Both the position numbers and the translations under genes were made by a program. Below are positions 2,833 to 62,098 of a DNA stretch of 64,000 bases, piece after piece. The notes under the pieces are model-generated. The model was not told the origin of the DNA, did not search any database, and was given only the letters and a program-made list of their open reading frames with translations. The stretch lies in the IMG/VR virus record IMGVR_UViG_3300035208_004396. One strand, written 5' to 3'. The first letter of the stretch is position 1. Each line of letters begins with the position of its first letter. This stretch comes from a virus. Its lineage: Duplodnaviria > Caudoviricetes.

Positions 2833-3918
2833 ATGAAGATATTATTAGTAGGTAGTGGCATATTTAATGCTACATTATATTCTAAACTGCATAGTAATAA
2901 TCAAATAGATGTTATTGAAAAAAGAGATCAAATAGGTGGAAATTGTTATACTTCGAATAAAGAAGGCATAACAATTCACGAATATGGCGCTCATATTTTC
3001 CATACTAGTATCGAAATAGTGTGGTCTTTTGTAAACGAATATGCCGAATTCAATAATTTTGTAAATTCTCCTGTTGCTATCAATCATGATAGTTTGTATA
3101 ATCTACCATTTAACATGAACACTTTTGCTCAGATTTTTCATGTTTATACACCTAAAGAAGTTAAAAAGATCATAAAATCCGAAATAAATGAGTCTGGTAT
3201 AGATCCAGAAAACCCTAAAGATCTCGAAGAAAAAGCAATATTGATGGTCGGAACTACTATTTATGAAAAATTAATTAAACATTATACTGAAAAACAATGG
3301 CAGACAGATTGTAAAAATCTAGATAGTTCGATAATTTCTCGCATTCCATTACGTTTTACTTACGATAATAACTATTTTAATTCTAAGTATCAAGGTATAC
3401 CTATACATGGTTATACCAATATGATTCAAAATATGTTTAGTTGTGCTTCTATTAGATTAGGAACCGATTTTTTGAAAAAACGTGATGAATATATCAGAAA
3501 TTACGATTTAATCTTCTATTCTGGTAGTTTAGATGCCTTTTTCGGATATAAACTAGGTCGTTTGCCATATAGATATCTAGATTTCAAGATTAATCGCTAT
3601 TATGAAGATAATCATCAAGGTAATGCCGTCGTAAATTATACAGATAATAGACCATATACTAGAACTATTGAGCATAAGTTTTTTAATTCTGAAAAAATGG
3701 ATCGAAATTATACTTATGTAACTACGGAAACTCCTATACTTAATGGATCCGAACCTTATTATCCGATTTCTAATGAACAGTCTAGAGCATTATATGCTAG
3801 TATGGTAAATAGTCTTCCCCGAAACGTTATACCTTGTGGTAGACTTGGTACTTATTCTTATCTTGATATGGACAAAGCCATAGAAAATGCTATGAATTTA
3901 GCCCATCAATTTATATAA
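2833..3918 (+). CDS. glf: UDP-galactopyranose mutase
   Basis: GSGIFNA FAD loop, GGNCY, YGAHIFHT, YTEKQW, YQGIP, EPYYP, GRLGTYSYLDMD. Confidence 0.97.
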   Translation: MKILLVGSGIFNATLYSKLHSNNQIDVIEKRDQIGGNCYTSNKEGITIHEYGAHIFHTSIEIVWSFVNEYAEFNNFVNSPVAINHDSLYNLPFNMNTFAQIFHVYTPKEVKKIIKSEINESGIDPENPKDLEEKAILMVGTTIYEKLIKHYTEKQWQTDCKNLDSSIISRIPLRFTYDNNYFNSKYQGIPIHGYTNMIQNMFSCASIRLGTDFLKKRDEYIRNYDLIFYSGSLDAFFGYKLGRLPYRYLDFKINRYYEDNHQGNAVVNYTDNRPYTRTIEHKFFNSEKMDRNYTYVTTETPILNGSEPYYPISNEQSRALYASMVNSLPRNVIPCGRLGTYSYLDMDKAIENAMNLAHQFI

Positions 3919-3929
3919 TAAATAAAACT

Positions 3930-5417
3930 ATGATTGACAATTCTAAAATAATAGTAGCCATGACATCATGGCCGAAAAGAATAAAAAACACAGAAAAATG
4001 TATACTTCAATTATTAAACAATACCATTAAAGCTGATAAAATTTACTTAACACTGTCCGAATTAGAATTTAATAATAGAGAATTGCCTGAGTTTTTAATC
4101 AAATTTCAAGAAAAATATAACAATTTTGAAGTTTTTTGGGTAAAAGATAATCAGAAAACATTAAAAAAGGTATTTCCCATATTAGATCTTTATAACTCGG
4201 ATGATATATTTTTAACTGTAGATGATGACATTTTATACCCCACAGATTATATCGAATCGAGATTAAAAAGCTTTTTTATTTGTAATCAACCTTTGACCGG
4301 CACAAATATATTTGATCCCTGTACTTATAATAATTGGGGTGTTAATGGCATATTTGGTGCTGGCGGTGTATTCAAAAAGAAAATGTTAAATCATTATAAA
4401 GAGTTTATAAATACAGAAGTTATAGCTTTATATAATGATGATATAATTTATACAGTATTATCATGGTTAAATGGTTATATTCCTCAAAAAGTCGATAAAT
4501 ATCCGGTTCAAGAATTGATCACTAAATACACATATAATGAAGTATTTTCAGCACATACATTGAAAATTTATCCTGAAGCAGATGTAACTATAGAAATAAT
4601 ATCCAAACGTGTTAAAGAAATAACCGGTAAAGATGTAAAAGATTCTTTTAATTATTATAATGGAAAAACTCTTAATACTATAGCATTCATAACTAATTAT
4701 AGTAACAATCAACTTTTTATTAAATTTGTGGATTATTATAAGGAAAGAAATATAAAATTCAATGCTTTTACATGTAAAGAATATGGTTATGGCCGAGATA
4801 TGTTAGAAAAAATAATACCATATTATTTAAACGAAGATAGTATAGATTTATTATGCTATATCGACGTAGATTGTTTCGTTACTGATATTCCGAATATGAT
4901 TTCGTTGATCAATTATATTAAAAATTCCGAATATGGTATTTGTGGTATGCCCGATGGTGGTGAAATATCACATCGTAATAGTAACCCTAATTATCCTAAT
5001 CTGTTTTTCGTTATTTTCGATTTAACTAAATTACGAAAAGTTTATAAAAAAGATACGATACGTGATGAAAATATAGATAAACATATAAACCCACAAGCTA
5101 TTAAAACAATTACAAAAGATTATACTAGAATTAATATTGTTAAAAATGATAAAATGACACCATTTTCAGTATTACAGGGCTATAATGAACCATATTATTC
5201 ATTTTTTGCTTATTTTTTTAATAAAGGTATAAAATTTGCTAAATTGAAAGCTGATGATGCACCTGAAGTAGATAATGATGGTGCTACTACGAAATTATAT
5301 GATTTCAATAAAAACATTATTGCTTATCATACTTGGTTTGCCAGATCTTATCAAATAGAAAATTATCACACTAATAGAATAGATAAAACTATTAACTATT
5401 GTAAGGATCTATCATAA
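3930..5417 (+). CDS. two-domain GT-A glycosyltransferase
   Basis: N domain MTSWPKR...VDDDILYP; C domain YIDVDCF (DxD), HTWFAR. Confidence 0.75.
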   Translation: MIDNSKIIVAMTSWPKRIKNTEKCILQLLNNTIKADKIYLTLSELEFNNRELPEFLIKFQEKYNNFEVFWVKDNQKTLKKVFPILDLYNSDDIFLTVDDDILYPTDYIESRLKSFFICNQPLTGTNIFDPCTYNNWGVNGIFGAGGVFKKKMLNHYKEFINTEVIALYNDDIIYTVLSWLNGYIPQKVDKYPVQELITKYTYNEVFSAHTLKIYPEADVTIEIISKRVKEITGKDVKDSFNYYNGKTLNTIAFITNYSNNQLFIKFVDYYKERNIKFNAFTCKEYGYGRDMLEKIIPYYLNEDSIDLLCYIDVDCFVTDIPNMISLINYIKNSEYGICGMPDGGEISHRNSNPNYPNLFFVIFDLTKLRKVYKKDTIRDENIDKHINPQAIKTITKDYTRINIVKNDKMTPFSVLQGYNEPYYSFFAYFFNKGIKFAKLKADDAPEVDNDGATTKLYDFNKNIIAYHTWFARSYQIENYHTNRIDKTINYCKDLS

Positions 5418-5419
5418 TA

Positions 5420-6142
5420 TCACCAGGTAGTGGTATTCCAATCATTTTTAACTTGCTTTACTCTATTAGCATATAATATTTTACCTGCTAAAATATTGTA
5501 ACCTCTGTTTAATGATAAAGCCACATTATCAGGGACAATATAGTTTATAGCATTAAAACAACCCGGTTTATTATAAGAGGGGATTCTGAAAATATATCCA
5601 TTTAATAACAGTATATTGGTATAGGCTTGATCATCTTGATTATCTGAAAAAAGTTCCGGTGTCATAAACTTTTCCCACCCATTTAGCATTTTTTTAGATA
5701 CTACACCAGCACAACCCGAGCTATATAATGACGTTTTTCCGTTAATTGTCAAGTGATCTATTCCATTTTCAGTAATACCACACATTTTATTATACTTCGA
5801 AAATTCTACTATTCTTTTTTCTAATAAATCCTTCGGCATTTTAAGCATATCATCATCCAAATAAATGATGATATCATCAGGATTTAGAAATTGCAAAATA
5901 GGAAATACTTTTTTCATAGTTTTAGAATTTTCTTTAACCCAGTTTATTTTGAACCAATCATCGATTTTATCTACTAAATCTTTAGGTAAATCGTCATTTT
6001 TACTTGGAAATTCATCACTTGACAATGTTAAATAAAAATTATCTGGCACTAAAGTCTGATTTTTTATTAAATCTACCATTTTTGACACATTTTTGATTCT
6101 TTTACGCCATGATGTCATGCAACAAACAATTTTATCGATCAT
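5420..6142 (-). CDS. GT-A glycosyltransferase, paralog of the N domain of 3930..5417
   Basis: MTSWRKR, KKVFPIL, YLDDD. Confidence 0.75.
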   Translation of the reverse strand: MIDKIVCCMTSWRKRIKNVSKMVDLIKNQTLVPDNFYLTLSSDEFPSKNDDLPKDLVDKIDDWFKINWVKENSKTMKKVFPILQFLNPDDIIIYLDDDMLKMPKDLLEKRIVEFSKYNKMCGITENGIDHLTINGKTSLYSSGCAGVVSKKMLNGWEKFMTPELFSDNQDDQAYTNILLLNGYIFRIPSYNKPGCFNAINYIVPDNVALSLNRGYNILAGKILYANRVKQVKNDWNTTTW

Positions 6143-6185
6143 ATTGTTATATATTTTCTAATTTATCGTAAGGAAGGCTAAATAG

Positions 6186-10246: not shown

Positions 10247-10638
10247 TAGCTGAATTCAGCATTAAGACCACAGAATCATCAAGTTTTAATCTCATTCAGG
10301 CTTTATCTGAGTATAAGATTGATGTAAATACTATAAATCCTATTCAACCAGACTGGGAAATGATGGATATTCCTTTGCGTAACTGGGATATTAATGTTGC
10401 TATGACTTTTGATACTGTAGTAATAGATGTTAAAATGGATAGTGTTAAAATCAAGTGTAAAGAACTTAAAGATGGATCTAGTGTTAAAGATTACACATTT
10501 AAATTCACAAAATCTGCAACGCCTAACGATATTAATTTCGCTTTGATCTATTTGAATCAGAGATCTGAAAATGAAGATGGCAAGAAAGAATATACTTTAT
10601 ATAGTGTAAAATTAACTGATAAAAAGGATGAAAAATAA
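10186..10638 (+). CDS. hypothetical protein
   Basis: GAGG RBS; TAATG coupling to next gene. Confidence 0.75.
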   Translation: MELNFTGRLTAVSLSKDEDLIAEFSIKTTESSSFNLIQALSEYKIDVNTINPIQPDWEMMDIPLRNWDINVAMTFDTVVIDVKMDSVKIKCKELKDGSSVKDYTFKFTKSATPNDINFALIYLNQRSENEDGKKEYTLYSVKLTDKKDEK

Positions 10639-11342
10639 TGAAGAATTTTAATTATAATGAGAAGTTTTTGCATATTTTGCGTACACTTGTACCAATTACG
10701 GATAGTGTAAAGATAAAAAAAGAAGGTGCTGATGTGGTCGTTAATAATGAGACAAATGACCGTAGTATCTCTTATTCATTAAAAACTAAACTTGAAAATT
10801 TCAATCTTCCCGAAGAAATAAACTTCTTAAGTTTTACGAAGTTCTTCGATCTTTATAACTTAACTAAAGCTGGACAAGATATTCAACCTCAAATCGGAAT
10901 AGATTCTGATAATATCCATATTCAAGTAGGGGATCGTCATGTTACCGAAAGAATGGCTAATCCCGGTGCTATCAGAGATGTAAAGTTAGTAGATCTAAAT
11001 GCCATTCCGTTTATTTCAGCATTGAAGTTGAATCTTTCCGATCTACAATACATGAAACAGTGTATTAATACAATTCATGCTAATTTCATCAGATTCCATC
11101 TTGTAAATGATAAGGTAAATGTTACGGTATATGATACTATCAATGCGACAAAGGGAGAATATACTTATGATTTAGCTAATCCTGTAAAAGAATCTCGTGA
11201 TTATGTTACTTCTACAGAATGTTTCAGTAGTTTGCCTAATTATGATTATTCTCTTTGTTTCCTAGAAAATCCTGCTATTTTAGCTAAAAAAGATAATTCG
11301 GATGGTTTTGAACTGAATATCGCTCTATCACTTACAGAATAA
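10638..11342 (+). CDS. sliding clamp (gp45-like)
   Basis: 234 aa, N-terminal ILRTLVPITDSV pattern, FLSFTKFFDL, two-domain layout like gp45. Confidence 0.6.
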   Translation: MKNFNYNEKFLHILRTLVPITDSVKIKKEGADVVVNNETNDRSISYSLKTKLENFNLPEEINFLSFTKFFDLYNLTKAGQDIQPQIGIDSDNIHIQVGDRHVTERMANPGAIRDVKLVDLNAIPFISALKLNLSDLQYMKQCINTIHANFIRFHLVNDKVNVTVYDTINATKGEYTYDLANPVKESRDYVTSTECFSSLPNYDYSLCFLENPAILAKKDNSDGFELNIALSLTE

Positions 11343-12158
11343 TTATAGGTCGTTAGCTTTAATATCGATGGTCTTCAATAAATGGAGATCATCGATTTTT
11401 GTATTATATACTTTAGTGATGATTTCAGTTATCAATGCACAATTTTCTATCTTTTTATAAAGATTAGCTTCTACTGCAAAATTGCAATTAACTGTTATTT
11501 CACGTTTAGCTTCTTCGACTAATGTATCTTCGGTTTGTAGATTTATTGAGTCCATTTTGAATCTGAGATCTCGTTCTACATTTAAAAACCAGAATTCCTT
11601 AGTGTATAAGAACGATTCGGGATTAAATTTTACACCTATTTGTTCGATTACTTGTAAAGCATCACTCATTTTATCACAACTAACCTGCACTTCAAAACCA
11701 ATGTTATATGGTACGGGATGTAGGTTTTCGAATAATAATTCCACAGTTTCATCATTTACACCTTTATTCAGTAAATAATCAGTATAGAATGTTCTGGTGT
11801 ACGTTTGAGCAGCTGCCCTATTAGGATCGAATTGCATAGAACTGATCTTATAAGTCAAGTTAGGTTGACTGACATAATAATCTTTTCCCGATTCACTTTC
11901 AACTCTCGGATCATGAGATTTTGCTCTTGGACCGAATTTTACTGGAACAATTATATCTTTTCTAGGATAGCCCTTTTCATCATACCTTAATACATGAAGA
12001 TCCCCAAAATAATTACCAAAAGCTAAGATTATACCCCTCAAAGTATCAGCAAAAAAATAGTTTTTTGGATAACCACCATTTTCAGAGTTTAATGTAGCTC
12101 TCCAATAGTTATGTTCTTCCGGATTATATCCTATATCTACCCACGATCCTTGTTCCAT
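11343..12158 (-). CDS. tail sheath stabiliser/terminator (gp15-like)
   Basis: ILAFGNYF, VPVKFGP, PVPYNIGF, LQVIEQI..FNP. Confidence 0.85.
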   Translation of the reverse strand: MEQGSWVDIGYNPEEHNYWRATLNSENGGYPKNYFFADTLRGIILAFGNYFGDLHVLRYDEKGYPRKDIIVPVKFGPRAKSHDPRVESESGKDYYVSQPNLTYKISSMQFDPNRAAAQTYTRTFYTDYLLNKGVNDETVELLFENLHPVPYNIGFEVQVSCDKMSDALQVIEQIGVKFNPESFLYTKEFWFLNVERDLRFKMDSINLQTEDTLVEEAKREITVNCNFAVEANLYKKIENCALITEIITKVYNTKIDDLHLLKTIDIKANDL

Positions 12159-12172
12159 ATAGATATGTATGA

Positions 12173-12499
12173 ATGCAATTACACAAGCATCTAAATCAAG
12201 CCGATAAAGCTAAAGTTAGAAGCACTAAAGCTTGGAAAAAACTCAAAAAAGATTTGTTGGCTAAAGATAATCTGGATTATTTGACTAAAATGAGATTAAC
12301 AGATGATTTCAACTGTCATCATTTAGATTTGAGACCTGCTAATTATGGTAAATTAGATAATTTATCTCATTTTATGCCACTAAATCGTAATTCACATGAA
12401 GTTATACATTTCTTATACAACTTATACAAAAACGATCCATACATATTGGATCGTTTGAAAGAAATCTTAGATTTGATGACTAAATTAAGCCAAAATTGA
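12173..12499 (+). CDS. HNH-like endonuclease
   Basis: W..L, CHHLD...N...LNRNSHEVIH. Confidence 0.55.
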   Translation: MQLHKHLNQADKAKVRSTKAWKKLKKDLLAKDNLDYLTKMRLTDDFNCHHLDLRPANYGKLDNLSHFMPLNRNSHEVIHFLYNLYKNDPYILDRLKEILDLMTKLSQN

Positions 12500-16831: not shown

Positions 16832-16876
16832 ACTAAATGAGACATTAAACGGTCTCATTTTAATATATAAGCATAT

Positions 16877-17335
16877 ATGATACCTAGCATTAATTGTGTT
16901 AATCTTATTAAAAAATGGGAAGGATTCCGAGCAAAACCATATCAAACTGTCTATAATGGAAAAAAAGATGTACCTACTATAGGTTATGGCAGTACTTTTT
17001 ATCTAGATGGTAAGAAAGTTTCTATGCAAGATCAAATGATAACAGAATCTACTGCTAGTGAGATGTTATCTGTAATAGTGAATGATTTTGCTACTCGAAT
17101 GATACCATATATTAAATCTAAATTGAATCAGAACCAATTTGATGCATTAGTATGTTTTTCTTATAATGTCGGTCTTGGTAACTTCATTAAATCTACATTG
17201 TTAAAAAAAGTTAACAATTCAGATTTTAATGGAGCTAGTTCAGAATTTTTGAAATGGAATAAGTGTCAGGGTAAAGTTGTTACGGGTTTGACTAATCGAC
17301 GAAATGATGAAAAAACTCTATTTTTGAAGGTATAA
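16877..17335 (+). CDS. endolysin, GH24 lysozyme
   Basis: EGFRAKPY, TIGYG, NQFDALVCFSYNVG, GLTNRR.DE. Confidence 0.95.
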   Translation: MIPSINCVNLIKKWEGFRAKPYQTVYNGKKDVPTIGYGSTFYLDGKKVSMQDQMITESTASEMLSVIVNDFATRMIPYIKSKLNQNQFDALVCFSYNVGLGNFIKSTLLKKVNNSDFNGASSEFLKWNKCQGKVVTGLTNRRNDEKTLFLKV

Positions 17336-18615: not shown

Positions 18616-18692
18616 TGTTTCAACCACATAAAGTGGTCAATCTCAAAAATGCCGATAATATATATAAATAATATAAAGGAGAATTTACTTTT

Positions 18693-19085
18693 ATGAAAAG
18701 AGTAATGCTTAATGAAAAAGAATACGCGAAGTTACGTAGACTTCGTTTATCAGAAATGGATATTAACAAAGATAATATGAGTTCAGGCGAACCAAATGGA
18801 GAAGACCAAACTTCTGTTGGTGCAGAAGGAGACGACGATATTGAGCCAGTAAGTGAAACCGCTATGTATTTACAGAGTTTAGCTGATTATTTTGCTTCTG
18901 GAACTATTGAAGACGATACCTTTGTACCAGATTTCTTAGCTAATATAAAGGATATTGTGGGTCAATATTCTGACGAAGGTCAAATTGACTTAGATGATTT
19001 CAGGGATGACAATTGTGATCCCAATGATCCTAATTGCGATCCTGATGAATATAAGCCATTAGATCAAATGGGTGATGAGGACTAA
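18693..19085 (+). CDS. acidic late protein, possible head internal protein
   Basis: TATAAATA promoter, AAGGAG RBS, LNE/LSE motifs. Confidence 0.7.
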   Translation: MKRVMLNEKEYAKLRRLRLSEMDINKDNMSSGEPNGEDQTSVGAEGDDDIEPVSETAMYLQSLADYFASGTIEDDTFVPDFLANIKDIVGQYSDEGQIDLDDFRDDNCDPNDPNCDPDEYKPLDQMGDED

Positions 19086-19130: not shown

Positions 19131-19381
19131 CAATCTGGATTATCTATTTTAGCACTACCTTTGAATTTAGCCGAATGCATGTAATTTTTAGAAACATACA
19201 TACCAGCACTTGTTAAAATAGGAACTATAGCACAAAATACAGAACTCATATTCGAAAAATCTGTACTTGGTAATAATAGAAACTTAATTGAAAATGCTAT
19301 AACTAAGATGTTTGTTATGCTCAATTCATTACGATCATTGAGTATTCTGAAAAAACGAAGAATTTTGAATAACTTTTTCAT
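19130..19381 (-). CDS. two-TM membrane protein, holin candidate
   Basis: Two hydrophobic segments, basic N-terminus, late promoter. Confidence 0.5.
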   Translation of the reverse strand: MKKLFKILRFFRILNDRNELSITNILVIAFSIKFLLLPSTDFSNMSSVFCAIVPILTSAGMYVSKNYMHSAKFKGSAKIDNPD

Positions 19382-19398
19382 CTCTGATATATATGAAA

Positions 19399-20043
19399 AT
19401 GAAGAAATATATTATATTTAGTGTAATTATAATTGTTTTAGTATTAGTAAGTATTAAGAATAATGAAACATATTCAGAGTATAAATCCGAATCTATTCTG
19501 AAAGAGAGAAATTATGTTTCTAAATTAGATTCGATGTATTTGGATTTAGATTCGATTACTTCGGCTTATTCGAATTTAAAACGTTTATATGAACTTAAAG
19601 ATTCAAATTATAGTGCTAAAAGTTCAAAAACACTGATACAGATCAAAACGGAATATAAGGATAGTATAAGGACAGTATATATCGAAAAATCTGATTATGA
19701 AGAAAATTTGACTATGAGTATCAAGAAATTAGAAGATAGTATCACGGTATTGAAAGAAAATGAGAAGAAACTAACTCAAATAGTTAAACACGATACGATA
19801 TATTTAGCTCAAAAAGAAGATACTAAGACTGGGATTAAGTCAAAAGATACTAGATATACCGTTTATGCTGATGGCACAATGGTATTAGATGAAAAACTTA
19901 ATTTGGCTAAAATTATCGATTTTGGTATAGATTATAGAGTTTTAGGTCCTGTTTTTATCGGTGCTAATGTTAATAAATCCGGTTTCGATCTTAAAAATGG
20001 GTATTTATTTGGTGTAAGGGCTGGTATAAAGTTCCAATTCTAA
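19399..20043 (+). CDS. membrane-anchored coiled-coil protein with C-terminal beta-strands (spanin candidate)
   Basis: N-terminal TM, coiled coil, ends GVRAGIKFQF. Confidence 0.55.
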   Translation: MKKYIIFSVIIIVLVLVSIKNNETYSEYKSESILKERNYVSKLDSMYLDLDSITSAYSNLKRLYELKDSNYSAKSSKTLIQIKTEYKDSIRTVYIEKSDYEENLTMSIKKLEDSITVLKENEKKLTQIVKHDTIYLAQKEDTKTGIKSKDTRYTVYADGTMVLDEKLNLAKIIDFGIDYRVLGPVFIGANVNKSGFDLKNGYLFGVRAGIKFQF

Positions 20044-26134: not shown

Positions 26135-26171
26135 ATAGTTTTATATATTTAATTCAAATAGAGAATTTGGT

Positions 26172-42699: not shown

Positions 42700-42700
42700 A

Positions 42701-42712
42701 TCATATATATGA
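42701..42712. promoter_or_regulatory. palindromic bidirectional late promoter TCATATATATGA
   Basis: CATATATA on both strands, 4 and 5 nt from divergent ATGs. Confidence 0.7.
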
Positions 42713-42714
42713 AT

Positions 42715-45357
42715 ATGGCGAACAGTACAAATTCATCTAATTTAGATTATACTAAGTTGACTCATTCTCAAATAGTAAACGATTTCATTCAACGAGTAAA
42801 AAATGATTCTAGATTTGCCAAATTATCTAATGCTTCGATATTCGTATTATTAACCGAAGCTGTTGCTGGTGTATTTGATATGTCAAATTATTATATTCAA
42901 CGTACTGCCGAAGAAAATTTCATAGACACTGCAAGATTAACTAGTTCTATAATAAAATGGTGTCATAATCTTTCATATCAACCTAGAAGACCTATACCGG
43001 CTCATGCTAATATAGCAGTTCAATTAAAAGGTCCACTACCTATTACTTGTAGTATAGGTGATGTTATTTGGTTCAATACTAATGATATAAACTTCACATA
43101 TTCGGATCATAATTACATATTCCAGAATTCTTATTCTTATACCTTAACTGCTAGTGATATTTCTAATGGTAAAAGTTCTACATGGTCTAAATTAATCAAA
43201 TATGCAATACCTAGTAAAATAAAAGATGGTTATATAGACTTAAATGGGGCAAAAGCATATAAAACAGGTGATCTTGAAGATGTTAAAGTGATTCAAGGTA
43301 CAAGAAAAACTACTACTATTAAAGCTAAAGATTATGTCCATAAAATGAGAAAACAATATCAAAAATATGATATTAACGATCTTAATTTCTCAGATTACAT
43401 TGGCGAACGGGATCCTTTTGCTATCAAAAATGATGTTATTTATCCGGCAAACGGGATTTGTAGAATCGGCTTAAGCAAAGATGTAAATAATCCTTATGAA
43501 AGAACTTTTAATATCGAATTAACTGATATTTATCTTAATTCTTCAGCATTAGCTTATAACGATTCGAATACTACACCAGAAAATCCACTTGATATTTGTA
43601 AGGTTTATTCTAATCAAGATAAAACTGTTAGAATTGAATTCGGTGATGGTGCTATTGCTTCTAACGGGTTCAATAATATAGAAGAAATATTAACAATTTC
43701 TTATTTGAGCACAGATGGTTATGTTGCAAATAAGTCGGGTTCAACAGGAGATCTGATAAAAACATCAAATAAGTTCTATTCTATCGGTACTAACATAACG
43801 AATGTAACTAATAATATTTCGTTTATTTTACAATCTGATATAGCAGGCGGATCTGATTTTGAAAGTGATGAAAAGATGAAAAGAAATGCTAAAATAGCAT
43901 TTTCAAGTCAAAATTCTCTTATTTCATTGCAGGATTATCAATCATTCTTGATGACACTTTCGGATCCTATTAATGTTCAACATGCTTCTGTTGTAAGCGA
44001 ATATAAAACAGAATCTAGCATTACTGGAGAACATCACGAGTTACAAAACGTTTTGCTTTATTCTATTACGAATTCATTTTACAGAAATTCTAAACCTTTG
44101 AATATATTCGATGATCAATATGATACTACGGCATATAGCAATTTAATGCTTTATGACAATAGAACCGAGTATCTCGATCATATTTTAGACACGTATCGCT
44201 TATATAAAGCACCTTATCAGTTCTATTTGACTCAATATGGTGATAATACGAGTTCGTTCAGGTCAAAATTACAGGATATCCAAGGACGAATCAAATATAA
44301 AACAGAAACTAGTTCTAGGTTATATAGTATAATTCCAATAGTTCATTACTTCGATATTGTAGGAAATATAAAAGTTAATAAAACGGCTGATATCGGAACA
44401 ATAAAAAATAACTTGGAAACAGAGATTACTGAATACTTTGACAAAAATGTAACATTTAACACAGAAGTTTATAAAGCCGATCTATCATCTAAAATTCTAA
44501 ATATTGATAATGTTGCAACAGCCACAATAGATATAAAACCATCTAATTTGCTAAAATCACCAGATGTAACTTATAATTTCATATATGGTACTAATTTCGA
44601 ATTGAAGTTAGTTAATTCAACATTAGAAAATAATTACAATATCTTATTACTAGATATAAACACATCTAATGGATCAATTATCAGTGCTGATTTATTAGCT
44701 AATAAAAGATTGAGTATCACCATTTATTATACTAATTCTGCTGGTGTACTGGCGAGTTATAATCTAAATATCATTCCTAAATCGGTAACTGAGTATAATG
44801 GAATAGTAACTATTGTTACACCTAACAATTTCGAAATAGATGGAACTATTAGTTCGGAAAATGAAATGGAATTGTTAGTTGCCGAAGAAGATGATTTAGC
44901 TAGTCTTAGTGCATTATCTCGGGATAGTGTTTATTCTACAGGTACTAACACTATACTAGGATCAGATGTATTAAAGGCTTTGACTAATTATCTTTCTAGC
45001 TTAGATACTAAAGTTACAGCTGATCGAGCAATACCATTGCCATATTATCTTTATGCTTATCCTAAATATGGTCATGCTGAAGAATATAAAAAATTATCTA
45101 ACTCGGATTATAATGTAGCAAAATTCTTATATGAAGGGCTAGATAATATAATAAAATCATTGAATATAACATTAGAATCAACTAATTTAACTAGTTCTAA
45201 TTGGATTATAGTAAATATGATGGTGAAAGATCTATATATGATATTGGCAGCAAGTTTAGCCGATAGCGTATTAGATGAAAATAATAACGTTGTAAATTAT
45301 TCTTTACCTAACGAAATACCAGTTTTCAGATTGAATCAACTTACTTATTCATATTAA
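42715..45357 (+). CDS. baseplate wedge gp6-like
   Basis: LDYTKL, EENFIDTA..SSI...LSYQP, IEFGDG, GGSDFES, QN..IS..DY; start moved to ATG 42715. Confidence 0.85.
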   Translation: MANSTNSSNLDYTKLTHSQIVNDFIQRVKNDSRFAKLSNASIFVLLTEAVAGVFDMSNYYIQRTAEENFIDTARLTSSIIKWCHNLSYQPRRPIPAHANIAVQLKGPLPITCSIGDVIWFNTNDINFTYSDHNYIFQNSYSYTLTASDISNGKSSTWSKLIKYAIPSKIKDGYIDLNGAKAYKTGDLEDVKVIQGTRKTTTIKAKDYVHKMRKQYQKYDINDLNFSDYIGERDPFAIKNDVIYPANGICRIGLSKDVNNPYERTFNIELTDIYLNSSALAYNDSNTTPENPLDICKVYSNQDKTVRIEFGDGAIASNGFNNIEEILTISYLSTDGYVANKSGSTGDLIKTSNKFYSIGTNITNVTNNISFILQSDIAGGSDFESDEKMKRNAKIAFSSQNSLISLQDYQSFLMTLSDPINVQHASVVSEYKTESSITGEHHELQNVLLYSITNSFYRNSKPLNIFDDQYDTTAYSNLMLYDNRTEYLDHILDTYRLYKAPYQFYLTQYGDNTSSFRSKLQDIQGRIKYKTETSSRLYSIIPIVHYFDIVGNIKVNKTADIGTIKNNLETEITEYFDKNVTFNTEVYKADLSSKILNIDNVATATIDIKPSNLLKSPDVTYNFIYGTNFELKLVNSTLENNYNILLLDINTSNGSIISADLLANKRLSITIYYTNSAGVLASYNLNIIPKSVTEYNGIVTIVTPNNFEIDGTISSENEMELLVAEEDDLASLSALSRDSVYSTGTNTILGSDVLKALTNYLSSLDTKVTADRAIPLPYYLYAYPKYGHAEEYKKLSNSDYNVAKFLYEGLDNIIKSLNITLESTNLTSSNWIIVNMMVKDLYMILAASLADSVLDENNNVVNYSLPNEIPVFRLNQLTYSY

Positions 45358-52104: not shown

Positions 52105-52132
52105 GATTAGAATATAGTAAATAAATATGTTT

Positions 52133-52744
52133 ATGAGTATCGAATCTCCATTTTTGCCATTAAGCAATAGTTCTAATTTCCAGACTGTTATAGGTATGTC
52201 TGCTTATGTTAATAACTCTACTTTATCAAATTATGCTACTATTTCGAGCTTATCAAGTATAAATTCGGATATATCAACTTTAAATTCTAATTTGAACACA
52301 ACTAACTCAAATTTATCCAACTTGAGTTCTAGTTTATCAGGATATCAATTGACTGAAAATATGATATCCTATCTCACTAGCGGAAGTTTATCATCATTAA
52401 ATTCAAATGTTTCGAGTTTAAATTCAAATTTATCCAACTTGAGTTCTAGTTTATCTGCCTATCAAGAAAAAGGATCATATTTATCGGCTAGCGAAAGTAT
52501 TAATCTATTATATAAAGATAATCTCAGTGCTGGTCCAGGCATAAATATAACAACTTTAGAGGATAAAACTCAAATAAATGTTCCTTCTGCTAATCTATAC
52601 CTATTAGGTCTAAAAGCATCGGCTACATCAACTGCTTCCCTATTAACTAATCCAGTCGGTGTATATTTCGATGTATTGACTGGATCTAGCGGAACTTTAT
52701 CAGCTAGTTTCATAGACAACCATTTATATTTCTTAGTTTCATAA
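52133..52744 (+). CDS. Ser/Asn/Leu coiled-coil fibre protein
   Basis: Internal duplication NSNLSNLSSSLS.YQ; AGPGINI; late promoter. Confidence 0.6.
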   Translation: MSIESPFLPLSNSSNFQTVIGMSAYVNNSTLSNYATISSLSSINSDISTLNSNLNTTNSNLSNLSSSLSGYQLTENMISYLTSGSLSSLNSNVSSLNSNLSNLSSSLSAYQEKGSYLSASESINLLYKDNLSAGPGINITTLEDKTQINVPSANLYLLGLKASATSTASLLTNPVGVYFDVLTGSSGTLSASFIDNHLYFLVS

Positions 52745-52777: not shown

Positions 52778-53677
52778 TTATTTCTTCAAACACTTTTTAA
52801 TATCAGCCTTTTTAGCATCTATTTTGTCACGAAGTTTCTTTTTAATTAAACTTTCGAACATTTTATCGAGTTCCCATAGACGATTATTATAAATCTTAGA
52901 CACTATTGAATCTGTTTTTTCATTTAATAATTGGCCTTCACCTTTATAAAAATCTAAACATTCCTGTTTGCTCTTATCTTTTTCGGGTTCACTTTCAGCG
53001 GTTTTTTCCTCGGGCTTAGAACCTTCTGCTGGTGCAGATCCTGCTGGTGTAGATCCTTCTGCAGGAGTACCTTCGACCGGGGCAGATTCTTCTTTAGGTG
53101 TGGATCCTTCAGGAGCCGATTCTTCGGATGGTGTAGATCCTTCTGCAGGAGTTACCTCTGTAGATGTTTCTTCACTAGACGGAGCTGATTCTGTACCGGT
53201 AGTTCCTTTATCCGGTGTTTCTTCCGTCGGATTTTCTTCAGTTGGAGTTTCAGACGGAGCAGCATTTTTCTTGATGTCAGAAACATCATTTTGAAGATTT
53301 GCTATTGCATTAGCAATGCTTACTAATGCATCAGAAATAGCAGTTTGATCTGTAGAATCACCTGATTCTGTTGCATCTGGTGTCGAAGCAGGATCAACTG
53401 TAGCTGGATTTTCTGGATCTGTTTCGGTAACAGGGGCATTAGGATTAGCTAGATTGGGATCTTCACTTGGATCTACACTAGGATCAGCCATTGGTTCTGC
53501 ATTAGGAGCAGTAGCAGTACTAGGATCTGCTGAAACCGGAGTATTAGGATCTGGCAATTGTGTATTATCATTGAAATCCTGTGATTTTTTTACATTATTA
53601 TCATCATCTAGAAAGCTTTCTTTTAGCTTGTTATTAATTTTTTCCTTAATGGAATCCGGATTAAACTTTTTTTTCAT
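52778..53677 (-). CDS. low-complexity acidic Pro/Ser/Thr protein, possible head core protein
   Basis: EGSTP repeats, LKE motif, late promoter. Confidence 0.7.
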   Translation of the reverse strand: MKKKFNPDSIKEKINNKLKESFLDDDNNVKKSQDFNDNTQLPDPNTPVSADPSTATAPNAEPMADPSVDPSEDPNLANPNAPVTETDPENPATVDPASTPDATESGDSTDQTAISDALVSIANAIANLQNDVSDIKKNAAPSETPTEENPTEETPDKGTTGTESAPSSEETSTEVTPAEGSTPSEESAPEGSTPKEESAPVEGTPAEGSTPAGSAPAEGSKPEEKTAESEPEKDKSKQECLDFYKGEGQLLNEKTDSIVSKIYNNRLWELDKMFESLIKKKLRDKIDAKKADIKKCLKK

Positions 53678-53718
53678 GACTTATACCTTTTATTAGTTAT
53701 ATATTTAAGTATATCGAA

Positions 53719-54603: not shown

Positions 54604-56745
54604 TTAATAACCTTCCAGTTTATAAGTTTCAGTATTAGAATAACAAGATTTAACTGATTTTGGACATTTTCGATTGAAAATGAACGATAATGAAACCAAT
54701 CTCTTGCCATTTTTAGCTATTTTTAAGAAATTTGCAATCTTATTCATATTTTCTCTATCTAAAGTCAAAATATAATGAGTATAACCTTCATAAATATCAG
54801 TACCTTTAATGTTTATTTTTACACATCTATAATAATTTCGGTTAACAGTACCGACTACAGTATGATTTTCTACTTCCCGATTATCCATCTCAAATATAAA
54901 TGGAAAATCACTTTTCGAGGCAGAATAAATTAAATTTTTAGTATTTAATGTCGGATTTTCAATTATACTTGACCCAGATAAGGCTTCTAATTTCGTAGCT
55001 TGAGCGAAATACGGAATAAACAACTTGTTTCCTGATAATTTCAAATTAGAATAATCCATATAAAACGTTTGTCTTAAATAATAATCCGCCTCACTAGTGA
55101 TCAAAGAATGAGCTATTATGTTCATGGTCAATGTAGCTGAAATTACAAACTCGAAATTACTCAATACACGTGTAGCCGGAATAATAGATCGAATCAACTT
55201 AATCAAAGGTTCTGCAATTTGATTCAATTTTACCAATCTAGCAGTTTGAGCACTAGTTAAACCCAGACTAATATGAGATGATAACTCATAATTAGTAGGA
55301 TCTATCATATCTTCGGTATAAAAATGAGAATGTGTCGCTTTATCAATCCATAATGGATAAACATTTACTAAGAAACCTAATGTATTAAACAATATATAAA
55401 TAGCCGTGTTTGTACCTTTATATTTGTTTATCACAGCTAATTTAGAATATACCGATCTCAACATACTTACCGGATCATAATTCAATGTATCATTTTCATC
55501 TTTGAAAAAATCTATCACATTATTCAGTGTATCTAAATCTAAATCTAAGTCAGGGCAATAAGTTTTAGCAAAATTAGACAATAATTGATCTTCGATTAAG
55601 CTAGCATCATTAAAATCTCCTATTCGTTTAATTTTCTCCAATATACCTATCTTACATGATTCATTTAGATTCAACGACGTATATTCTGTGTTAAAAAAAT
55701 ACTCGAGATATTCTTTAAAATCATTAAATTTTAGATCGGCTAAGTATTTTGGAACTGGAATATATAAATCTCGGATATTTTCACATTTTTTAACGAATGG
55801 CCCAAGCTGATTATAGGCTATAGTATAATTTTTGATTAAATCATCATATTCATTATCACCTATTTTAAGGTATACTGAAGCAAAAACAGTTCCACTTGTG
55901 TCTATGCCATCTAATTTTCGATAAGCTACATCATCTTCTATTTCAACATCACCGATTATATAACCCGCACTATCTTGTAATAATTCGAAAACATAAGTGA
56001 CATCGAACAACTCGGTTAATTCAGACCAATACTCATTTTTTGTAACATTGGGATTAAATGCTTCTAATTTACAATTTCCGGTGATTTGATATCCTAGACA
56101 TAGATTTTCAGGATAAATATCTCTGAAATTTAATACTAAATGTTGTAAACTTTTTATAAACTCGGTTAAAGTGATCGGTACAAATATAAATTCTTTGAAA
56201 TTTGAAAAAGTAAACTTATTACCATTTACATCAAATAAGGCTAAACTTAAGTTGATATCTGATATTTCTGTAAAACCTTGGGGATTTGCCGTAAAAAGAC
56301 AACTCAAAGTGTAAATATCACCATTCTGAATCAACTTCAAATTTGAAATATAATCGTTTATTTTCGAATTATTGTTAAAAAATGTTATATTTTCAGATGA
56401 AATTCCAATACTATCATAGATATCTAATTTTATTTCCCACGCTTTGATATAAACTAATTCGGTCTGTGTATAAGAACCATGTAGACCTTTGAACGAGAGA
56501 TATGAGGTCTTATCTGCCAAAAGATCGGGTTTCTTAGTATCGATCAAAATATTACGAATAGTATAAGCAATTCTGTATTTCGTACCACCATTGAACAGGA
56601 TAGTATCTTCATTGATATCATTGCTGTCAGAATCAAAACCCCAGTTATCAGCAGGAGTATTCGGTATAGGATCTAAAGGTTTAGAAATATCACTACTAAA
56701 CCATCTCAGATCCGAAAGGTCATATATTTTAGACTCTTTTATCAT
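54604..56745 (-). CDS. baseplate wedge (gp7/P2 gpI-like)
   Basis: INKYKGTNTAIYILFNTLG; IIPA. Confidence 0.6.
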   Translation of the reverse strand: MIKESKIYDLSDLRWFSSDISKPLDPIPNTPADNWGFDSDSNDINEDTILFNGGTKYRIAYTIRNILIDTKKPDLLADKTSYLSFKGLHGSYTQTELVYIKAWEIKLDIYDSIGISSENITFFNNNSKINDYISNLKLIQNGDIYTLSCLFTANPQGFTEISDINLSLALFDVNGNKFTFSNFKEFIFVPITLTEFIKSLQHLVLNFRDIYPENLCLGYQITGNCKLEAFNPNVTKNEYWSELTELFDVTYVFELLQDSAGYIIGDVEIEDDVAYRKLDGIDTSGTVFASVYLKIGDNEYDDLIKNYTIAYNQLGPFVKKCENIRDLYIPVPKYLADLKFNDFKEYLEYFFNTEYTSLNLNESCKIGILEKIKRIGDFNDASLIEDQLLSNFAKTYCPDLDLDLDTLNNVIDFFKDENDTLNYDPVSMLRSVYSKLAVINKYKGTNTAIYILFNTLGFLVNVYPLWIDKATHSHFYTEDMIDPTNYELSSHISLGLTSAQTARLVKLNQIAEPLIKLIRSIIPATRVLSNFEFVISATLTMNIIAHSLITSEADYYLRQTFYMDYSNLKLSGNKLFIPYFAQATKLEALSGSSIIENPTLNTKNLIYSASKSDFPFIFEMDNREVENHTVVGTVNRNYYRCVKINIKGTDIYEGYTHYILTLDRENMNKIANFLKIAKNGKRLVSLSFIFNRKCPKSVKSCYSNTETYKLEGY

Positions 56746-56786
56746 ATTTGTATTTATCTAACTCAGTAATGATTCGATATACATTA

Positions 56787-58270: not shown

Positions 58271-58312
58271 TTAGCTAGTCCTTATATAAATATACAAAAT
58301 AGGAGTGAAACA

Positions 58313-61219
58313 ATGTCGAAGTATTCTACACCAGACGTGTACTTCAACGAAATCGATCATACAGTTCGTAATAATACCACTGTTGGCGATGGACGAGGTG
58401 CTATTGTCTTTAATGCTGACAAAGGTTATGTAAATCAACGAATTTTAACTACGGGTTATTCTAATTTCAAAACTCAATTTGGTACGCCGACTAACAGTTC
58501 TAATTATGGTCATTTTGCTGCAGAACAATTCTTTGCTAACGGTTCTACACAACTTCTTGGAGTTCGTGCTACTATGGGCGATGAAAGATATGCTTTCATT
58601 CAATACCCCTATAACAGTGCTGGTATAGCTAATACTAATCTGGATTCTACAACTCAAGAATTAGAATATGTAGATTATGAAGGTGAACATAACTTAGTAT
58701 TACTAAATGCTTTTAAGGGAGATTTGAGTACTTATACTGCAGATAACTGGCATTATATTGATAATACAGCAACATTCTTTATGTATTCATACGGGAAAGT
58801 TTCCGATTTTGCTGATTTATATAATGATGGCGCTGATGAAGTCAGAATAGTATATCGTGATTCTAAAAATGCTGAAATTACTGCTAATTCGGGTACATTT
58901 TATAAGATTCCTACTAGTGATAAACTCACAAATTATAACAGATTTGCTCTGAATCAAGCCGGTATAAATTCTTCGCCATTAACTGCTGATGCAACAGGAT
59001 CTTCGGCATATTATCATTTTGATTCTAGTGATAGCATAAATGATACTTCTGCTACTTATTATAAGACTTATTTACATCTTGATGCTGGATATTCGTTGAA
59101 TTCTACTGATATTGATGCTCAATATTATCTCAATTCTGGTGTTTTAACTGGAACTTCTGCTGAATTGACAACGTTATTAAACAATGAATCCATTTTAGGT
59201 TTAACAAGTGCAGATTCTGCATATTCGGCTAATGCTTCGAAATTAGTAGTTGCGGATTGGGATGAAAATCTAGAATTGAAGACCTATTATGTTAATAAAT
59301 CATCTTTTACTTCTCCAAATGTTAGTGGCATAGAATATCGTGAATACTCTCATGGTGATAAAGATTTTGCTCTGTGTATCAATGCTATTTCTAGTATTAG
59401 ATGTGATAATATGACTGGTTCTGATAGTTTTGCTATTTTAGAAGATCTAGCGGATCAATATGGTTTAGCAGTTACGGATATTAACAATTCATCATATTGC
59501 AATTTGAAATATACTGATGCTAAGTCACAAGAGGAAGTAAATTTATTGGTTTATAATGATGGCTTATCTGAAGGATTCGGGGCTTATTCTAGTACACCAA
59601 ATCTATTCATCTTATACCAAGATCAAAATAACTCAAATAAAACTAAAGGTGAAGCCATTTATTATCATAAAGATCCTAAAAATGTTATTTTACCTTGGCA
59701 GATTAGTAAAAATAATGTCCCGGAACTCATTGCACAAAGCACATTAGAGATGTTCAGCGATAGCACGGGAATCTGGTCAGATGGTTATACTCCTACTAGC
59801 ATAGATGAAGAACCGGGCAATGGTGACGTTGAAAGTTATACAGATAAATCTAAGAACTTGGTCATAGCTGCATTAGCTCCAGGGGATTACTTGAATAGAA
59901 TTGGTATTTCAATAATAACACCGGATTGCGAAGATATACCGGCATTGAATGGACCTAATACATTCGATTGGAAATATCTTTTCGATGATGAAGACAAGGT
60001 CGATAATGGTGCAGATAACTTGACTTATAAGAAAGTCTATAAGTTGAATGTTTATGTTCGGAATATAGATCAAGATGAATCTATATGGGGTACTGGTTTA
60101 ACTAGTTTGAATTATGACCCTACCGAATCATTCTATGTGTCTAATGATCCTACGGCAAAAGATTTACAAGGTAATAGCTTATATGTTACTGATGTGATTA
60201 ATGGTCATTCTAACTATATCTACGTTTCTAAGAAATCAGTAGAAACATCTTTCGTATCAAATATAGGGGGTGTTACTACTTATGATATGCCATCCCAAAC
60301 TTATTCTATTTATAGTCTTAGTGGTGGTAAGAATTCTAAATTGAATGATATTAAGCAGAAAACGGCAGCATTACAGCTTTTCGAGGACAACGAGAAGTCT
60401 GATTTCGATATTATATTTAATGTTGAACCGATTGAAAGTTTTACGGGTAAACAAAAATATAAAGCGATGCAAGATAAGATTGCTAATATTGCTATTACAC
60501 GTGGAAAAGATATCGGGTTCATTCAGACCACATCGAAAGCGGCGAAAACTGGTTCATTGATGGTAAGTGAAAGTAAGAATTTCAAATATACTAATGGTTC
60601 TTACGTTGCTGGTTATGGCGGATATGATAAGTCATATAACAGTGACATCAGTGCATGGATTAATATCCCTAAGTCGGTGGCCGGTGCTTGTGCTGAATGT
60701 TTTTGTCAGATTTATTCATATCCCTGGATGGCACCTGCGGGAACAGAACGCGGTGTAATAGCATATTCAGATGGTACTACACCTAAATTGAGTAAATTGG
60801 ATATGGGTAAGTTATATAATCAAAACATCAATACTTCTCGTACTTTCCCAGCTTATGGCGAAACTTTATTCACTCAGAAAACTATGTTGAAGAAAGATTC
60901 CGCACTGAACAGAATAGATGTTAGATCGCTGGTGAATACAATAGAAAAGAACTTATATATATTGCTTTTGCCGTTCATTTACAAGAAAAATACTGCCACT
61001 ACAAGAAGTTCTATGAAATCTACAGTCGAAGATTTATTAGGTAGAATTAAGGCTGGAGAAGGTATAACTTCATATTCAGTAACAGTTAAATCTGATTCTA
61101 ATGATCCGCATTTGGTTTATGTAAACTTGACTATCATTCCGGCCGAATCTATTGAATTCATCGAAGTCAATATCACGTTGGAAAGAGATCAGGGAATAAC
61201 ATTCGCGGAAGCTGCTTAA
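58313..61219 (+). CDS. tail sheath protein (gp18-like), 968 aa
   Basis: P.VYF.EID, FGTP, APG, PWMAPAG..RG, ALNRIDVR, SIEFI; AGGAG RBS and TATAAATA promoter. Confidence 0.95.
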   Translation: MSKYSTPDVYFNEIDHTVRNNTTVGDGRGAIVFNADKGYVNQRILTTGYSNFKTQFGTPTNSSNYGHFAAEQFFANGSTQLLGVRATMGDERYAFIQYPYNSAGIANTNLDSTTQELEYVDYEGEHNLVLLNAFKGDLSTYTADNWHYIDNTATFFMYSYGKVSDFADLYNDGADEVRIVYRDSKNAEITANSGTFYKIPTSDKLTNYNRFALNQAGINSSPLTADATGSSAYYHFDSSDSINDTSATYYKTYLHLDAGYSLNSTDIDAQYYLNSGVLTGTSAELTTLLNNESILGLTSADSAYSANASKLVVADWDENLELKTYYVNKSSFTSPNVSGIEYREYSHGDKDFALCINAISSIRCDNMTGSDSFAILEDLADQYGLAVTDINNSSYCNLKYTDAKSQEEVNLLVYNDGLSEGFGAYSSTPNLFILYQDQNNSNKTKGEAIYYHKDPKNVILPWQISKNNVPELIAQSTLEMFSDSTGIWSDGYTPTSIDEEPGNGDVESYTDKSKNLVIAALAPGDYLNRIGISIITPDCEDIPALNGPNTFDWKYLFDDEDKVDNGADNLTYKKVYKLNVYVRNIDQDESIWGTGLTSLNYDPTESFYVSNDPTAKDLQGNSLYVTDVINGHSNYIYVSKKSVETSFVSNIGGVTTYDMPSQTYSIYSLSGGKNSKLNDIKQKTAALQLFEDNEKSDFDIIFNVEPIESFTGKQKYKAMQDKIANIAITRGKDIGFIQTTSKAAKTGSLMVSESKNFKYTNGSYVAGYGGYDKSYNSDISAWINIPKSVAGACAECFCQIYSYPWMAPAGTERGVIAYSDGTTPKLSKLDMGKLYNQNINTSRTFPAYGETLFTQKTMLKKDSALNRIDVRSLVNTIEKNLYILLLPFIYKKNTATTRSSMKSTVEDLLGRIKAGEGITSYSVTVKSDSNDPHLVYVNLTIIPAESIEFIEVNITLERDQGITFAEAA

Positions 61220-61223
61220 AAAT

Positions 61224-61282
61224 AAAAAGGATCCTTTAAGGATCCTTTTTTATTAAAAAAAACCCTATAAAGGGTTTTTTTA
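61224..61282. terminator. two tandem bidirectional terminators
   Basis: AAAAAGGATCCTTTAAGGATCCTTTTTT and AAAAAAAACCCTATAAAGGGTTTTTTT. Confidence 0.85.
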
Positions 61283-61284
61283 GT

Positions 61285-62073
61285 TCACTTATTTAATCGC
61301 TGTTTTTCGTCATCTTTTACACCTTTTATGAATGATTCTTTAGATTTAAGCCATTCTTTATTCAATGGAGATTTATATAACGGAATATTGATATTTTTAA
61401 TATTATAATCTAGATACATCGATCTAATTTCATCGATTAAACTATCGCTCATAGATGAAATCTCTAATTTTGCTATTTTCTCGTTGGAATTTTCCGATTT
61501 TACTAAACTTTCTTCATAAAGACTCTTATAATCCATACTGAAGTCTATTTTATCATCGCCATAACGTAAAACACTCTTGAAATCTTCTACATTTAATCCA
61601 TAATATATTGATTTAGGTGAATAATTTGCTAAATAATCTCGCATAATTTTTGAAAATTGTGCTATATCCATCTTATCATGAGAGTTATTTTCCGACCATT
61701 CTTCGAATTCTTTAAAATATCTTTCGTATAAGTATTGTATCTTATTTAACATGGACTTAATCCAACTATCTTTTACAGGAGCTATTTCACTTCCTATACA
61801 TTTCAAACTCGGTATAACTGTCATTTTATCTGAAATAGTGAATGCAAATTCCTTGTCATTAAGTCTTTTAGAAAGATCAGTATTGATATTTTTTGTGAAA
61901 AACCAAATAGGTTTAGTTTTATAACCGAATAATGTTTTCGCACTTAATTTAGCTTCATCATATTTACGTCCGAAACGAGCTTCTCTATCAGCTTCGGCTT
62001 TTTTGAAATATTGTTGATAATTATGAGAATAACCACCATAATTAGTATTATAATATTCTAAGAATCTTTCCAT
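61285..62073 (-). CDS. hypothetical late protein
   Basis: CATATATA-N5-ATG; MERFLE N-terminus. Confidence 0.7.
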   Translation of the reverse strand: MERFLEYYNTNYGGYSHNYQQYFKKAEADREARFGRKYDEAKLSAKTLFGYKTKPIWFFTKNINTDLSKRLNDKEFAFTISDKMTVIPSLKCIGSEIAPVKDSWIKSMLNKIQYLYERYFKEFEEWSENNSHDKMDIAQFSKIMRDYLANYSPKSIYYGLNVEDFKSVLRYGDDKIDFSMDYKSLYEESLVKSENSNEKIAKLEISSMSDSLIDEIRSMYLDYNIKNINIPLYKSPLNKEWLKSKESFIKGVKDDEKQRLNK

Positions 62074-62098
62074 ACTAATATATATGTGAAAATAACTA

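Follow-up and report, generated by a model that had tools for sequence, protein, structure and literature searches.

Start codons fused to a T4-type late promoter box point to leaderless late messages in an uncultured T4-like phage

The stretch of DNA analyzed here (the window) comprises 64,000 nucleotides (nt) of IMG/VR virus record IMGVR_UViG_3300035208_004396 (Duplodnaviria; Caudoviricetes); it has 30% G+C and is 92% coding, with 7.8% intergenic DNA. The element under study is a heptamer, ATA[ACGT]ATA (the box), that stands immediately upstream of many start codons. Spacers were counted from the end of the box to the ATG, so that N5 denotes a 5-nt spacer, and starts with a spacer of 4–7 nt were termed box-fused. 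An earlier sequence-only reading had listed 18 such starts, and a box was verified 4–7 nt before the ATG at each of the 18. The spacer is 5 nt at ten of them, as had been claimed (3930, 6142(-), 12158(-), 14572(-), 19399, 31073, 42715, 52133, 56745(-) and 62073(-)), and a 19th site, at ATG 39804, was added. The box-fused starts are listed below (aa, amino acids; ORF, open reading frame).

3918..3932, plus strand: ATAAATA, N5, ATG 3930; 495-aa GT2-like protein, 11 nt 3' of the glf gene
6140..6154, minus strand: ATATATA, N5, ATG 6142; 240 aa, heads a divergent unit
12156..12175, both strands: bidirectional pair 12158(-) and 12173(+), ATGs 14 nt apart
12164-12170, minus strand: box ATACATA of this pair, N5, ATG 12158; gp3-like protein
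12159-12165, plus strand: box ATAGATA of this pair, N7, ATG 12173; 108 aa
14570..14584, minus strand: ATATATA, N5, ATG 14572; 154 aa, heads unit 12879-14572
16863..16879, plus strand: ATATATA, N7, ATG 16877; endolysin, immediately 3' of a hairpin and T-run
19379..19401, both strands: bidirectional pair, ATGs 17 nt apart, overlapping palindromic ATATATA boxes at 19387-19394
ATG 19381, minus strand of this pair: N6; 83 aa with two hydrophobic segments, holin-like
ATG 19399, plus strand of this pair: N5; 214 aa with an N-terminal membrane anchor
26132..26148, minus strand: ATATATA, N7, ATG 26134; heads unit 20302-26134 (205, 449 and 1287 aa), divergent from the gp55-like gene
31061..31075, plus strand: ATAAATA, N5, ATG 31073; 499 aa, 3' of a 9-bp hairpin and T-run
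38055..38070, minus strand: TATAAATA (the sole full T4 consensus), N6, ATG 38057; 340 aa, unit ends with a gp25-like gene
39792..39806, plus strand: ATATATA, N5, ATG 39804; 105 aa, at the stop codon of the gene for the C-terminal part of DNA polymerase
42697..42717, both strands: bidirectional pair, ATGs 15 nt apart, overlapping ATATATA boxes at 42703-42710
ATG 42699, minus strand of this pair: N4; 303 aa
ATG 42715, plus strand of this pair: N5; gp6-like baseplate wedge, 880 aa
47624..47637, plus strand: ATATATA, N4, ATG 47635; putative 51-aa ORF, heads the unit with the tube and gp2 genes
52121..52135, plus strand: ATAAATA, N5, ATG 52133; 203 aa, divergent from UvsW (likely true start 52104(-))
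56743..56757, minus strand: ATAAATA, N5, ATG 56745; 713 aa
57228..57241, plus strand: ATAGATA, N4, ATG 57239; putative 73-aa ORF
62071..62085, minus strand: ATATATA (palindromic box), N5, ATG 62073; 262 aa

The window encodes virion proteins (major capsid protein (MCP), scaffold, tail sheath, tail tube, baseplate hub and a gp2-like end protector) along with a gp6-like baseplate wedge, a gp3-like sheath stabiliser, endolysin, UvsX, UvsW and GroES. Its DNA polymerase gene (38857-39792) specifies the C-terminal part of a family B enzyme only (PHROG profile positions 565-844 of 856). The sequence comes from an uncultured phage whose MCP is less than 30% identical to that of any cultured phage, and positions 30000-50000 gave no megablast match to cultured phages; we therefore regard it as a distant T4-like myovirus. 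A single window protein has a 99%-identical copy on a 149-kb contig, so that the window covers only part of a genome ≥149 kb in size. The closest relative, a contig of 129,831 bp, carries an MCP 85% identical and a gp55-like protein ∼54–60% identical. A single-protein MCP scan of IMG/VR found nothing, and the same scan of JGI metagenomes found one 1.2-kb fragment only (99% identical).

Gene starts were called blind to the box, as the longest non-overlapping ORFs with the first available start codon (ATG, GTG or TTG). A box lies 4–7 nt upstream of 15 of the 86 starts obtained in this way and of 10 of 2542 other ATGs (Fisher p 4e-17). Of those ten box-bearing ATGs, four (19399, 42715, 52133 and 39804) offer a called gene another start in the same frame, and there the ATG beside the box is the likely true start. 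Longest-ORF calls misplace other starts as well: the likely true ones are 58313 for the sheath gene, 52104(-) for UvsW and 54602(-) for a 150-aa gene, the last backed by orthologue N-termini and by GGAAGG. With refined starts, the spacers across the 19 sites are N4 at three, N5 at eleven, N6 at two and N7 at three, and the boxes are ATATATA (11), ATAAATA (5), ATAGATA (2) and ATACATA (1).

A window with 30% G+C and 92% coding content might produce such a pattern by chance, from AT-rich sequence and compact intergenic regions. The sequence-only reading had proposed enrichment against shuffled sequence as a check, and the motif and spacing proved to be well above the AT-rich background: shuffles of the 40 nt upstream of every gene gave 1.08 ± 1.05 sites, with a maximum of 7 in 2000, compared with the 19 observed. 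The box is also under-represented, both overall and within genes. The window holds 137 boxes, fewer than its dinucleotide shuffles (220 ± 16), and 37 of the 137 fall in the intergenic DNA. Inside genes, ATA[AT]ATA occurs 22 times on the sense strand vs 46 times in synonymous-codon shuffles (z −4.6) and is thus avoided; the avoidance is strongest for ATATATA, and two control AT-rich heptamers are avoided much less. Since the register is sharp here and sharper still in relatives, a chance origin is hardly credible.

The box-fused genes also differ from the others in their initiation signals. An SD-like (Shine-Dalgarno-like) tetramer at −4 to −18 is present at none of the 19 and at 32 of the 66 other genes (p 3e-5), in agreement with the earlier claim that the listed starts have no SD sequence. 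The start codon is ATG in all 19, and TTG or GTG in 11 of the 66 others.

The positions of the boxes resemble those of promoters. Defining the head of a transcription unit by a strand switch or a gap >40 nt, 17 of the 19 sites are unit heads; the other two lie 11 nt past a same-strand gene, and the box is absent from every start/stop-coupled internal gene. Both same-strand heads that follow gaps >40 nt (16877 and 31073) are situated 3' of hairpin and T-run terminators. In three divergent pairs (12158(-)/12173, 19381(-)/19399 and 42699(-)/42715) the ATGs are 14–17 nt apart and the boxes overlap and are partly palindromic, leaving no room for a leader unless transcription began within the opposing gene. 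No box and no early-type promoter were found inside the opposing genes of these three pairs. Box-to-ATG distances are bimodal, being either 4–7 nt without an SD or 20–35 nt with one (scaffold/MCP, sheath 58313, 18693, 53677(-), 27748 and 12805(-)); at 8–19 nt there are just two intragenic copies, both at 9 nt. The genes served are of late type: box-fused genes include those for the gp3-like protein, endolysin, the gp6-like protein and the pair of holin-like and membrane-anchored proteins, and the box also precedes the scaffold/MCP and sheath genes and heads the tube-gene unit.

These placements bear on the possibility that the box is an AU-rich translation signal, an unstructured or S1-binding substitute for the SD, on leadered polycistronic mRNAs transcribed from upstream promoters. 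The 30% G+C content of the genome would suit such a signal, the box excludes the SD as a substitute ribosome-binding element would, and 5' ends at the ATG are a prediction from sequence alone. A translation signal, however, does not account for the restriction of the sites to 17 unit heads out of 19 with none at a start/stop-coupled internal gene, for divergent ATGs 14–17 nt apart with no box or early-type promoter inside the opposing genes, for the T4-like presence of the same box 20–35 nt before SD-led late genes, or for the frequent abutment of the box on a terminator in relatives. We consider this explanation unlikely.

No column is conserved across the 20 nt that precede the box, that is, there is no −35 element. 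A separate, early-type promoter class, TTGAGA-N16/17-TATATT, is found at 814, 27427, 46281(-), 62099 and 62521. Reading the box itself as a sigma-70 −10 element was rejected because a −10 hexamer requires T at the position where the box has its final A; the lack of a TTGAGA −35 and the match of the box to the canonical TATAAATA of relatives also count against it. There may be a second, near-leaderless class in which a host-type −10 (TATATT) lies 6–7 nt before the ATG, at 52104(-), 38081, 15184 and 2198 (4 of 85 gene starts vs 15 of 2539 other ATGs), and the DHH phosphoesterase gene (46243(-)) has a full TTGAGA-N17-TATATT just 9 nt before its ATG.

Where the box stands farther upstream, it is combined with a leader. 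The following sites have leaders of 20–22 nt; the MCP gene is listed with them.

33089..33119, plus strand: ATATATA, 21-nt leader with AAGGAG; scaffold gene (33117), MCP next in the same unit
34182-35468: gp23-type MCP
58286..58315, plus strand: ATAAATA, 20-nt leader with TAGGAG; sheath gene, start 58313
18664..18695, plus strand: ATAAATA, 22-nt AAGGAG leader; 130-aa gene
53675..53704, minus strand: ATATATA, 20-nt AAGGT leader; 299-aa gene 52778-53677(-)

High-copy genes thus keep the same box together with an AGGAG-type leader, as the sequence-only reading had described for scaffold/MCP and sheath. All four clearly abundant virion genes (MCP, scaffold, sheath and tube) have strong SDs, and the identifiable box-fused genes specify low-copy or enzymatic products. 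The further proposal of a two-tier expression code, SD-led for abundant proteins and leaderless for low-copy ones, is partly supported: the SD-led MCP, scaffold, sheath and tube genes and the pattern among orthologues (below) agree with it, and the support is partial because most of the fused genes lack an assigned function or copy number.

The window also encodes candidates for the machinery of T4-type late transcription.

26172..26762, plus strand: gp55-like late sigma factor, 196 aa; phrog_234 at 2.4e-6
10638..11342, plus strand: gp45-like sliding clamp, 234 aa; phrog_223 at 2.4e-8

The gp55-like protein gave no tblastn match among cultured phages and no Pfam match. A profile of 15 gp55-like homologues has T4 gp55 (7d7c_F) as its top PDB match (E 0.002), followed by region 2 of SigW, an ECF sigma factor, and 13 of the 15 homologues match phrog_234, the late-sigma PHROG (best 4e-11).

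In T4, late promoters consist of a TATA box of 8 bp located roughly one helical turn before the transcription start, with its first base at −13 and no conservation at −35; this TATAAATA is recognized by gp55 together with gp33 and the gp45 clamp (PMC2988020). Because the T4 box spans −13 to −6, a 5-nt spacer places +1 on the A of the ATG, and the earlier claim that T4 geometry sets the start on or next to that A is borne out at the modal N5. The phage shares with T4 an A/T box at the −10 position that matches 6–7 of T4's 8 positions, the lack of a −35 element, the use of both strands, service to virion and lysis genes, gp55-like and gp45-like proteins, and abundant virion genes with a box ∼20 nt upstream plus an SD. 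It differs in the box, whose initial T is not conserved (the 19 sites show no preference at T4's first box position) and whose position 5 is more often T than A, and in that gp33 was not seen among the ORFs scanned in the window. The distances also differ. As a control, the 70–120 kb region of T4 was examined, where ATAAATA lies 12–35 nt (mode 27–28) before 15 of 59 annotated starts, all with an SD, and no annotated start has a box at 4–7 nt. In that region the T4 box is always 12–35 nt away with an SD leader, whereas here roughly two in three candidate late promoters are fused.

Related loci provide a second view of this layout. Eighty IMG/VR loci (L001-L080), on contigs of up to 415 kb, were collected by MCP alignment; their MCPs are 44–51% identical. 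Of 655 starts in these relatives, 68 have TATAAATA at a spacing of exactly 4 nt, with only 2–3 at N5, N6 or N7 and none at N3, and ATGs that are not starts show no spacing peak. Most of the remaining boxes precede SD leaders of ∼15–35 nt. A terminator-like hairpin is located ≤60 nt upstream of 42% of the fused starts, compared with 1–12% in the other classes. Orthologues of the gp3-like gene are box-fused in 5 of 8 cases, those of the 303-aa protein in 3 of 3 and those of the gp6-like gene in 4 of 11, the other seven gp6-like orthologues having a box and an SD. MCP (0 of 69), scaffold (0 of 62), sheath (0 of 13) and hub (0 of 22) are never fused. Three relatives carry gp55-like genes, and two carry IF-1 genes.

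These giant T4-like gut and rumen phages share with the window a gp23-type MCP and a late box that is either fused to the ATG or set before an SD leader, and in both MCP, scaffold and sheath are never fused. They differ in having a canonical (T/C)ATAAATA with strict N4, in contrast to the relaxed box, modal N5 and 4–7-nt spread found here, and in the fused share, which is about a quarter in the relatives (92 vs 245) and about two thirds in this phage (19 vs roughly 6–9 leadered). The relatives are possibly akin to the published Jug phages, whose description mentions neither promoters nor leaderless messages (PMC12880540).

The orthologues are also informative about whether the start codons are correctly placed. 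The boxes could be late promoters with the true starts further downstream, the box-side ATGs being unused and the leaders ordinary. In-frame downstream starts with an SD-like tetramer do exist at four of the 19 sites: codon 27 of 25517-26134, codon 30 of the 31073 gene (an ATG with GGAG), codon 16 of 37035-38057 and codon 22 of the 57239 gene. The other 15 sites offer no such alternative, however, and an ATG in the 4–7-nt register at 19 unit heads is unlikely by chance. Moreover, the gp3-like and gp6-like N-termini align with their orthologues from the first residues, SD-led orthologues included, and the start codons of these two genes are therefore correct. Misplaced starts are a very improbable explanation for the set as a whole.

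Taken together, the evidence is strong that the box behaves as a T4-type late promoter, as the sequence-only reading had proposed: the gp55-like and gp45-like genes, the missing −35, the unit heads, the terminators and the virion and lysis genes served are all consistent with it, and the part that did not stand is the full consensus, found at one site of 19. We consider it probable that ATA(A/T)ATA is the T4-type late promoter of this phage and that its fusion to the ATG at 19 units gives rise to leaderless messages, which the geometry supports well. In the proposed mechanism, the box is a −10-type element without a −35 and is probably read by the host RNA polymerase core carrying the gp55-like sigma factor (26172-26762), and the gp45-like clamp would assist late transcription. 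If initiation occurs 6 nt after the box as in T4, transcription would begin on the A of the AUG or no more than 2 nt from it. The mRNAs of the 19 units would then have no leader and no SD, and the ribosome would bind the 5'-terminal AUG. For the most abundant virion proteins, expression would come from the same box with a 20–21-nt leader and a strong SD. As the same box is found fused or leadered, the box-to-ATG distance would select between two modes of translation initiation.

Several observations weigh against this reading. The box is short and degenerate, the full TATAAATA being present at 38057(-) only, and about 90 copies persist inside genes; a promoter may therefore need more than the box. 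The gp55 assignment depends on profile matches that are weak though consistent (E 0.002 to T4 gp55), and no gp33 homologue was found among the scanned ORFs of the window, which is part of a genome. Four of the 19 ORFs are short (51–108 aa) and without a PHROGs match (47635 was outside the scan), and these four have no orthologue in the relatives' loci. Structure in the first 40 nt (minimum free energy, unpaired probability and z-score) does not differ between box-fused and other genes. The leaderless status is a prediction from T4 geometry and the 4–7-nt spacing. Since the spacer is not constant here, some messages would carry a 1–2-nt leader or the start site must shift. The N4 of the relatives falls one base short of the value expected from T4 geometry. 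The start distance is thus not constant within the group, and that of gp55-type polymerases may differ between lineages. Finally, clues to the host, on whose capacity for leaderless translation the reading would depend, conflict: the best named relative of glf is from Lachnospira, and the MCP relatives are binned with Paludibacteraceae.

The phage also encodes a translation initiation factor, IF-1, as the sequence-only reading had indicated at 28616.

28616..28837, plus strand: phage IF-1, 73 aa, start/stop-coupled inside unit 27482-30480
27427..27455, plus strand: early-type promoter TTGAGA-N17-TATATT, heads the IF-1 unit, 26-nt leader with SD

The protein is a full-length IF-1 (PF01176 at 1.4e-18, residues 9-69), matching solved IF-1 structures over its full length at E 4e-19 to 1e-15. 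Because an early-type promoter heads its unit, IF-1 is probably made early, before the late messages. The unit (27427-30480) consists of nine small, tightly coupled genes, one of which (28834-29703) contains a T4_baseplate domain.

It has been suggested that this IF-1 is a specific factor that enables or tunes leaderless late translation, an idea compatible with leaderless initiation from the box. The gene is intact and under an early-type promoter, both near-complete relatives with the box-fused layout encode IF-1, and leaderless translation in vitro is stimulated by IF1 and IF2 and inhibited by high IF3 (PMC9031893). The co-occurrence, however, is confined to three related genomes, and IF-1 is also encoded by unrelated Prevotella Lak phages and Bacteroides phages, among them DAC16, in which all genes are on one strand and the layout does not look T4-like; the T4-like Jug gut phages have IF-1 among their core genes (PMC12880540). 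IF1 serves canonical initiation too, so its presence implies no specificity for leaderless messages. Because IF-1 also occurs in unrelated phages, the link through co-occurrence is a plausible guess, and a dedicated role of IF-1 seems doubtful.

Some neighboring features deserve mention. Region 2833-6142 contains a UDP-galactopyranose mutase gene (Pfam GLF, 2e-62) followed by the gene for the 495-aa protein. The N-terminal half of this protein is similar to GT2 glycosyltransferases (Atlas score 0.95, to be taken only as a lead); the glf and GT2-like genes point to a phage galactofuranose pathway, and the box-fused starts 3930 and 6142(-) are the flanking ones in this region. The Thr/Ser-rich 499-aa gene at 31073-32572 precedes the MCP gene by three genes, near the place that the portal gene (gp20) occupies in T4. 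Its identification as a portal from position only was dropped because it shows no similarity to gp20 of T4. At 62078-62085, the palindromic box faces not only the 262-aa gene 62073(-) but also a noncoding RNA and tRNA cluster on the plus strand (62099-62700). This cluster has two TTGAGA-N16/17-TATATT promoters (62099 and 62521) and tRNAs Leu-TAA, Leu-CAA and Lys-TTT, with one more recognized by Rfam only at 62770-62843. ORF-free gaps of 611 nt (14573-15183) and 493 nt (56746-57238) separate divergent genes, and Rfam at gathering thresholds found nothing in either.

Leaderless mRNAs are known from other systems; examples are lambda cI from PRM, and they are common in Actinobacteria, Deinococcus and archaea (PMC9031893). 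The box-fused units share with them a predicted 5'-terminal AUG, strict use of ATG, the absence of an SD and a −10-type box that lies close to the start codon at a fixed spacing. The known phage cases are single regulatory genes, whereas here the leaderless messages would be those of an entire group of late units for structure and lysis, under a phage sigma factor. The mapped transcriptome of phiKZ contains no leaderless transcript (PMC8244752), and the mapped untranslated regions of AR9 are 26–491 nt long (PMC5312081). In full-text literature searches, no paper was found that relates gp55 or T4-type late promoters to leaderless messages.

Late transcription in T4 is a textbook case, and its messages are regarded as SD-led. 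We view as speculative and unlikely the general proposal that, in T4-like phages outside the model group, the box-to-ATG distance switches between SD-led translation of abundant proteins and leaderless translation of low-copy, lysis and accessory proteins, with early IF-1 reprogramming host initiation to make translation of the leaderless late messages efficient. The bidirectional promoter pairs, with ATGs 14–17 nt apart, are compact natural templates for testing the prediction of leaderless messages. If it is true, gene finders that depend on the SD will misplace such starts, and the box-to-ATG register would be a readout, from sequence only, of where a gp55-type polymerase starts (N5 here, N4 in the relatives). 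Phage-encoded initiation factors would gain a concrete, testable job, and late gene dosage in uncultured T4-like phages would be set in part by the pathway of translation initiation.

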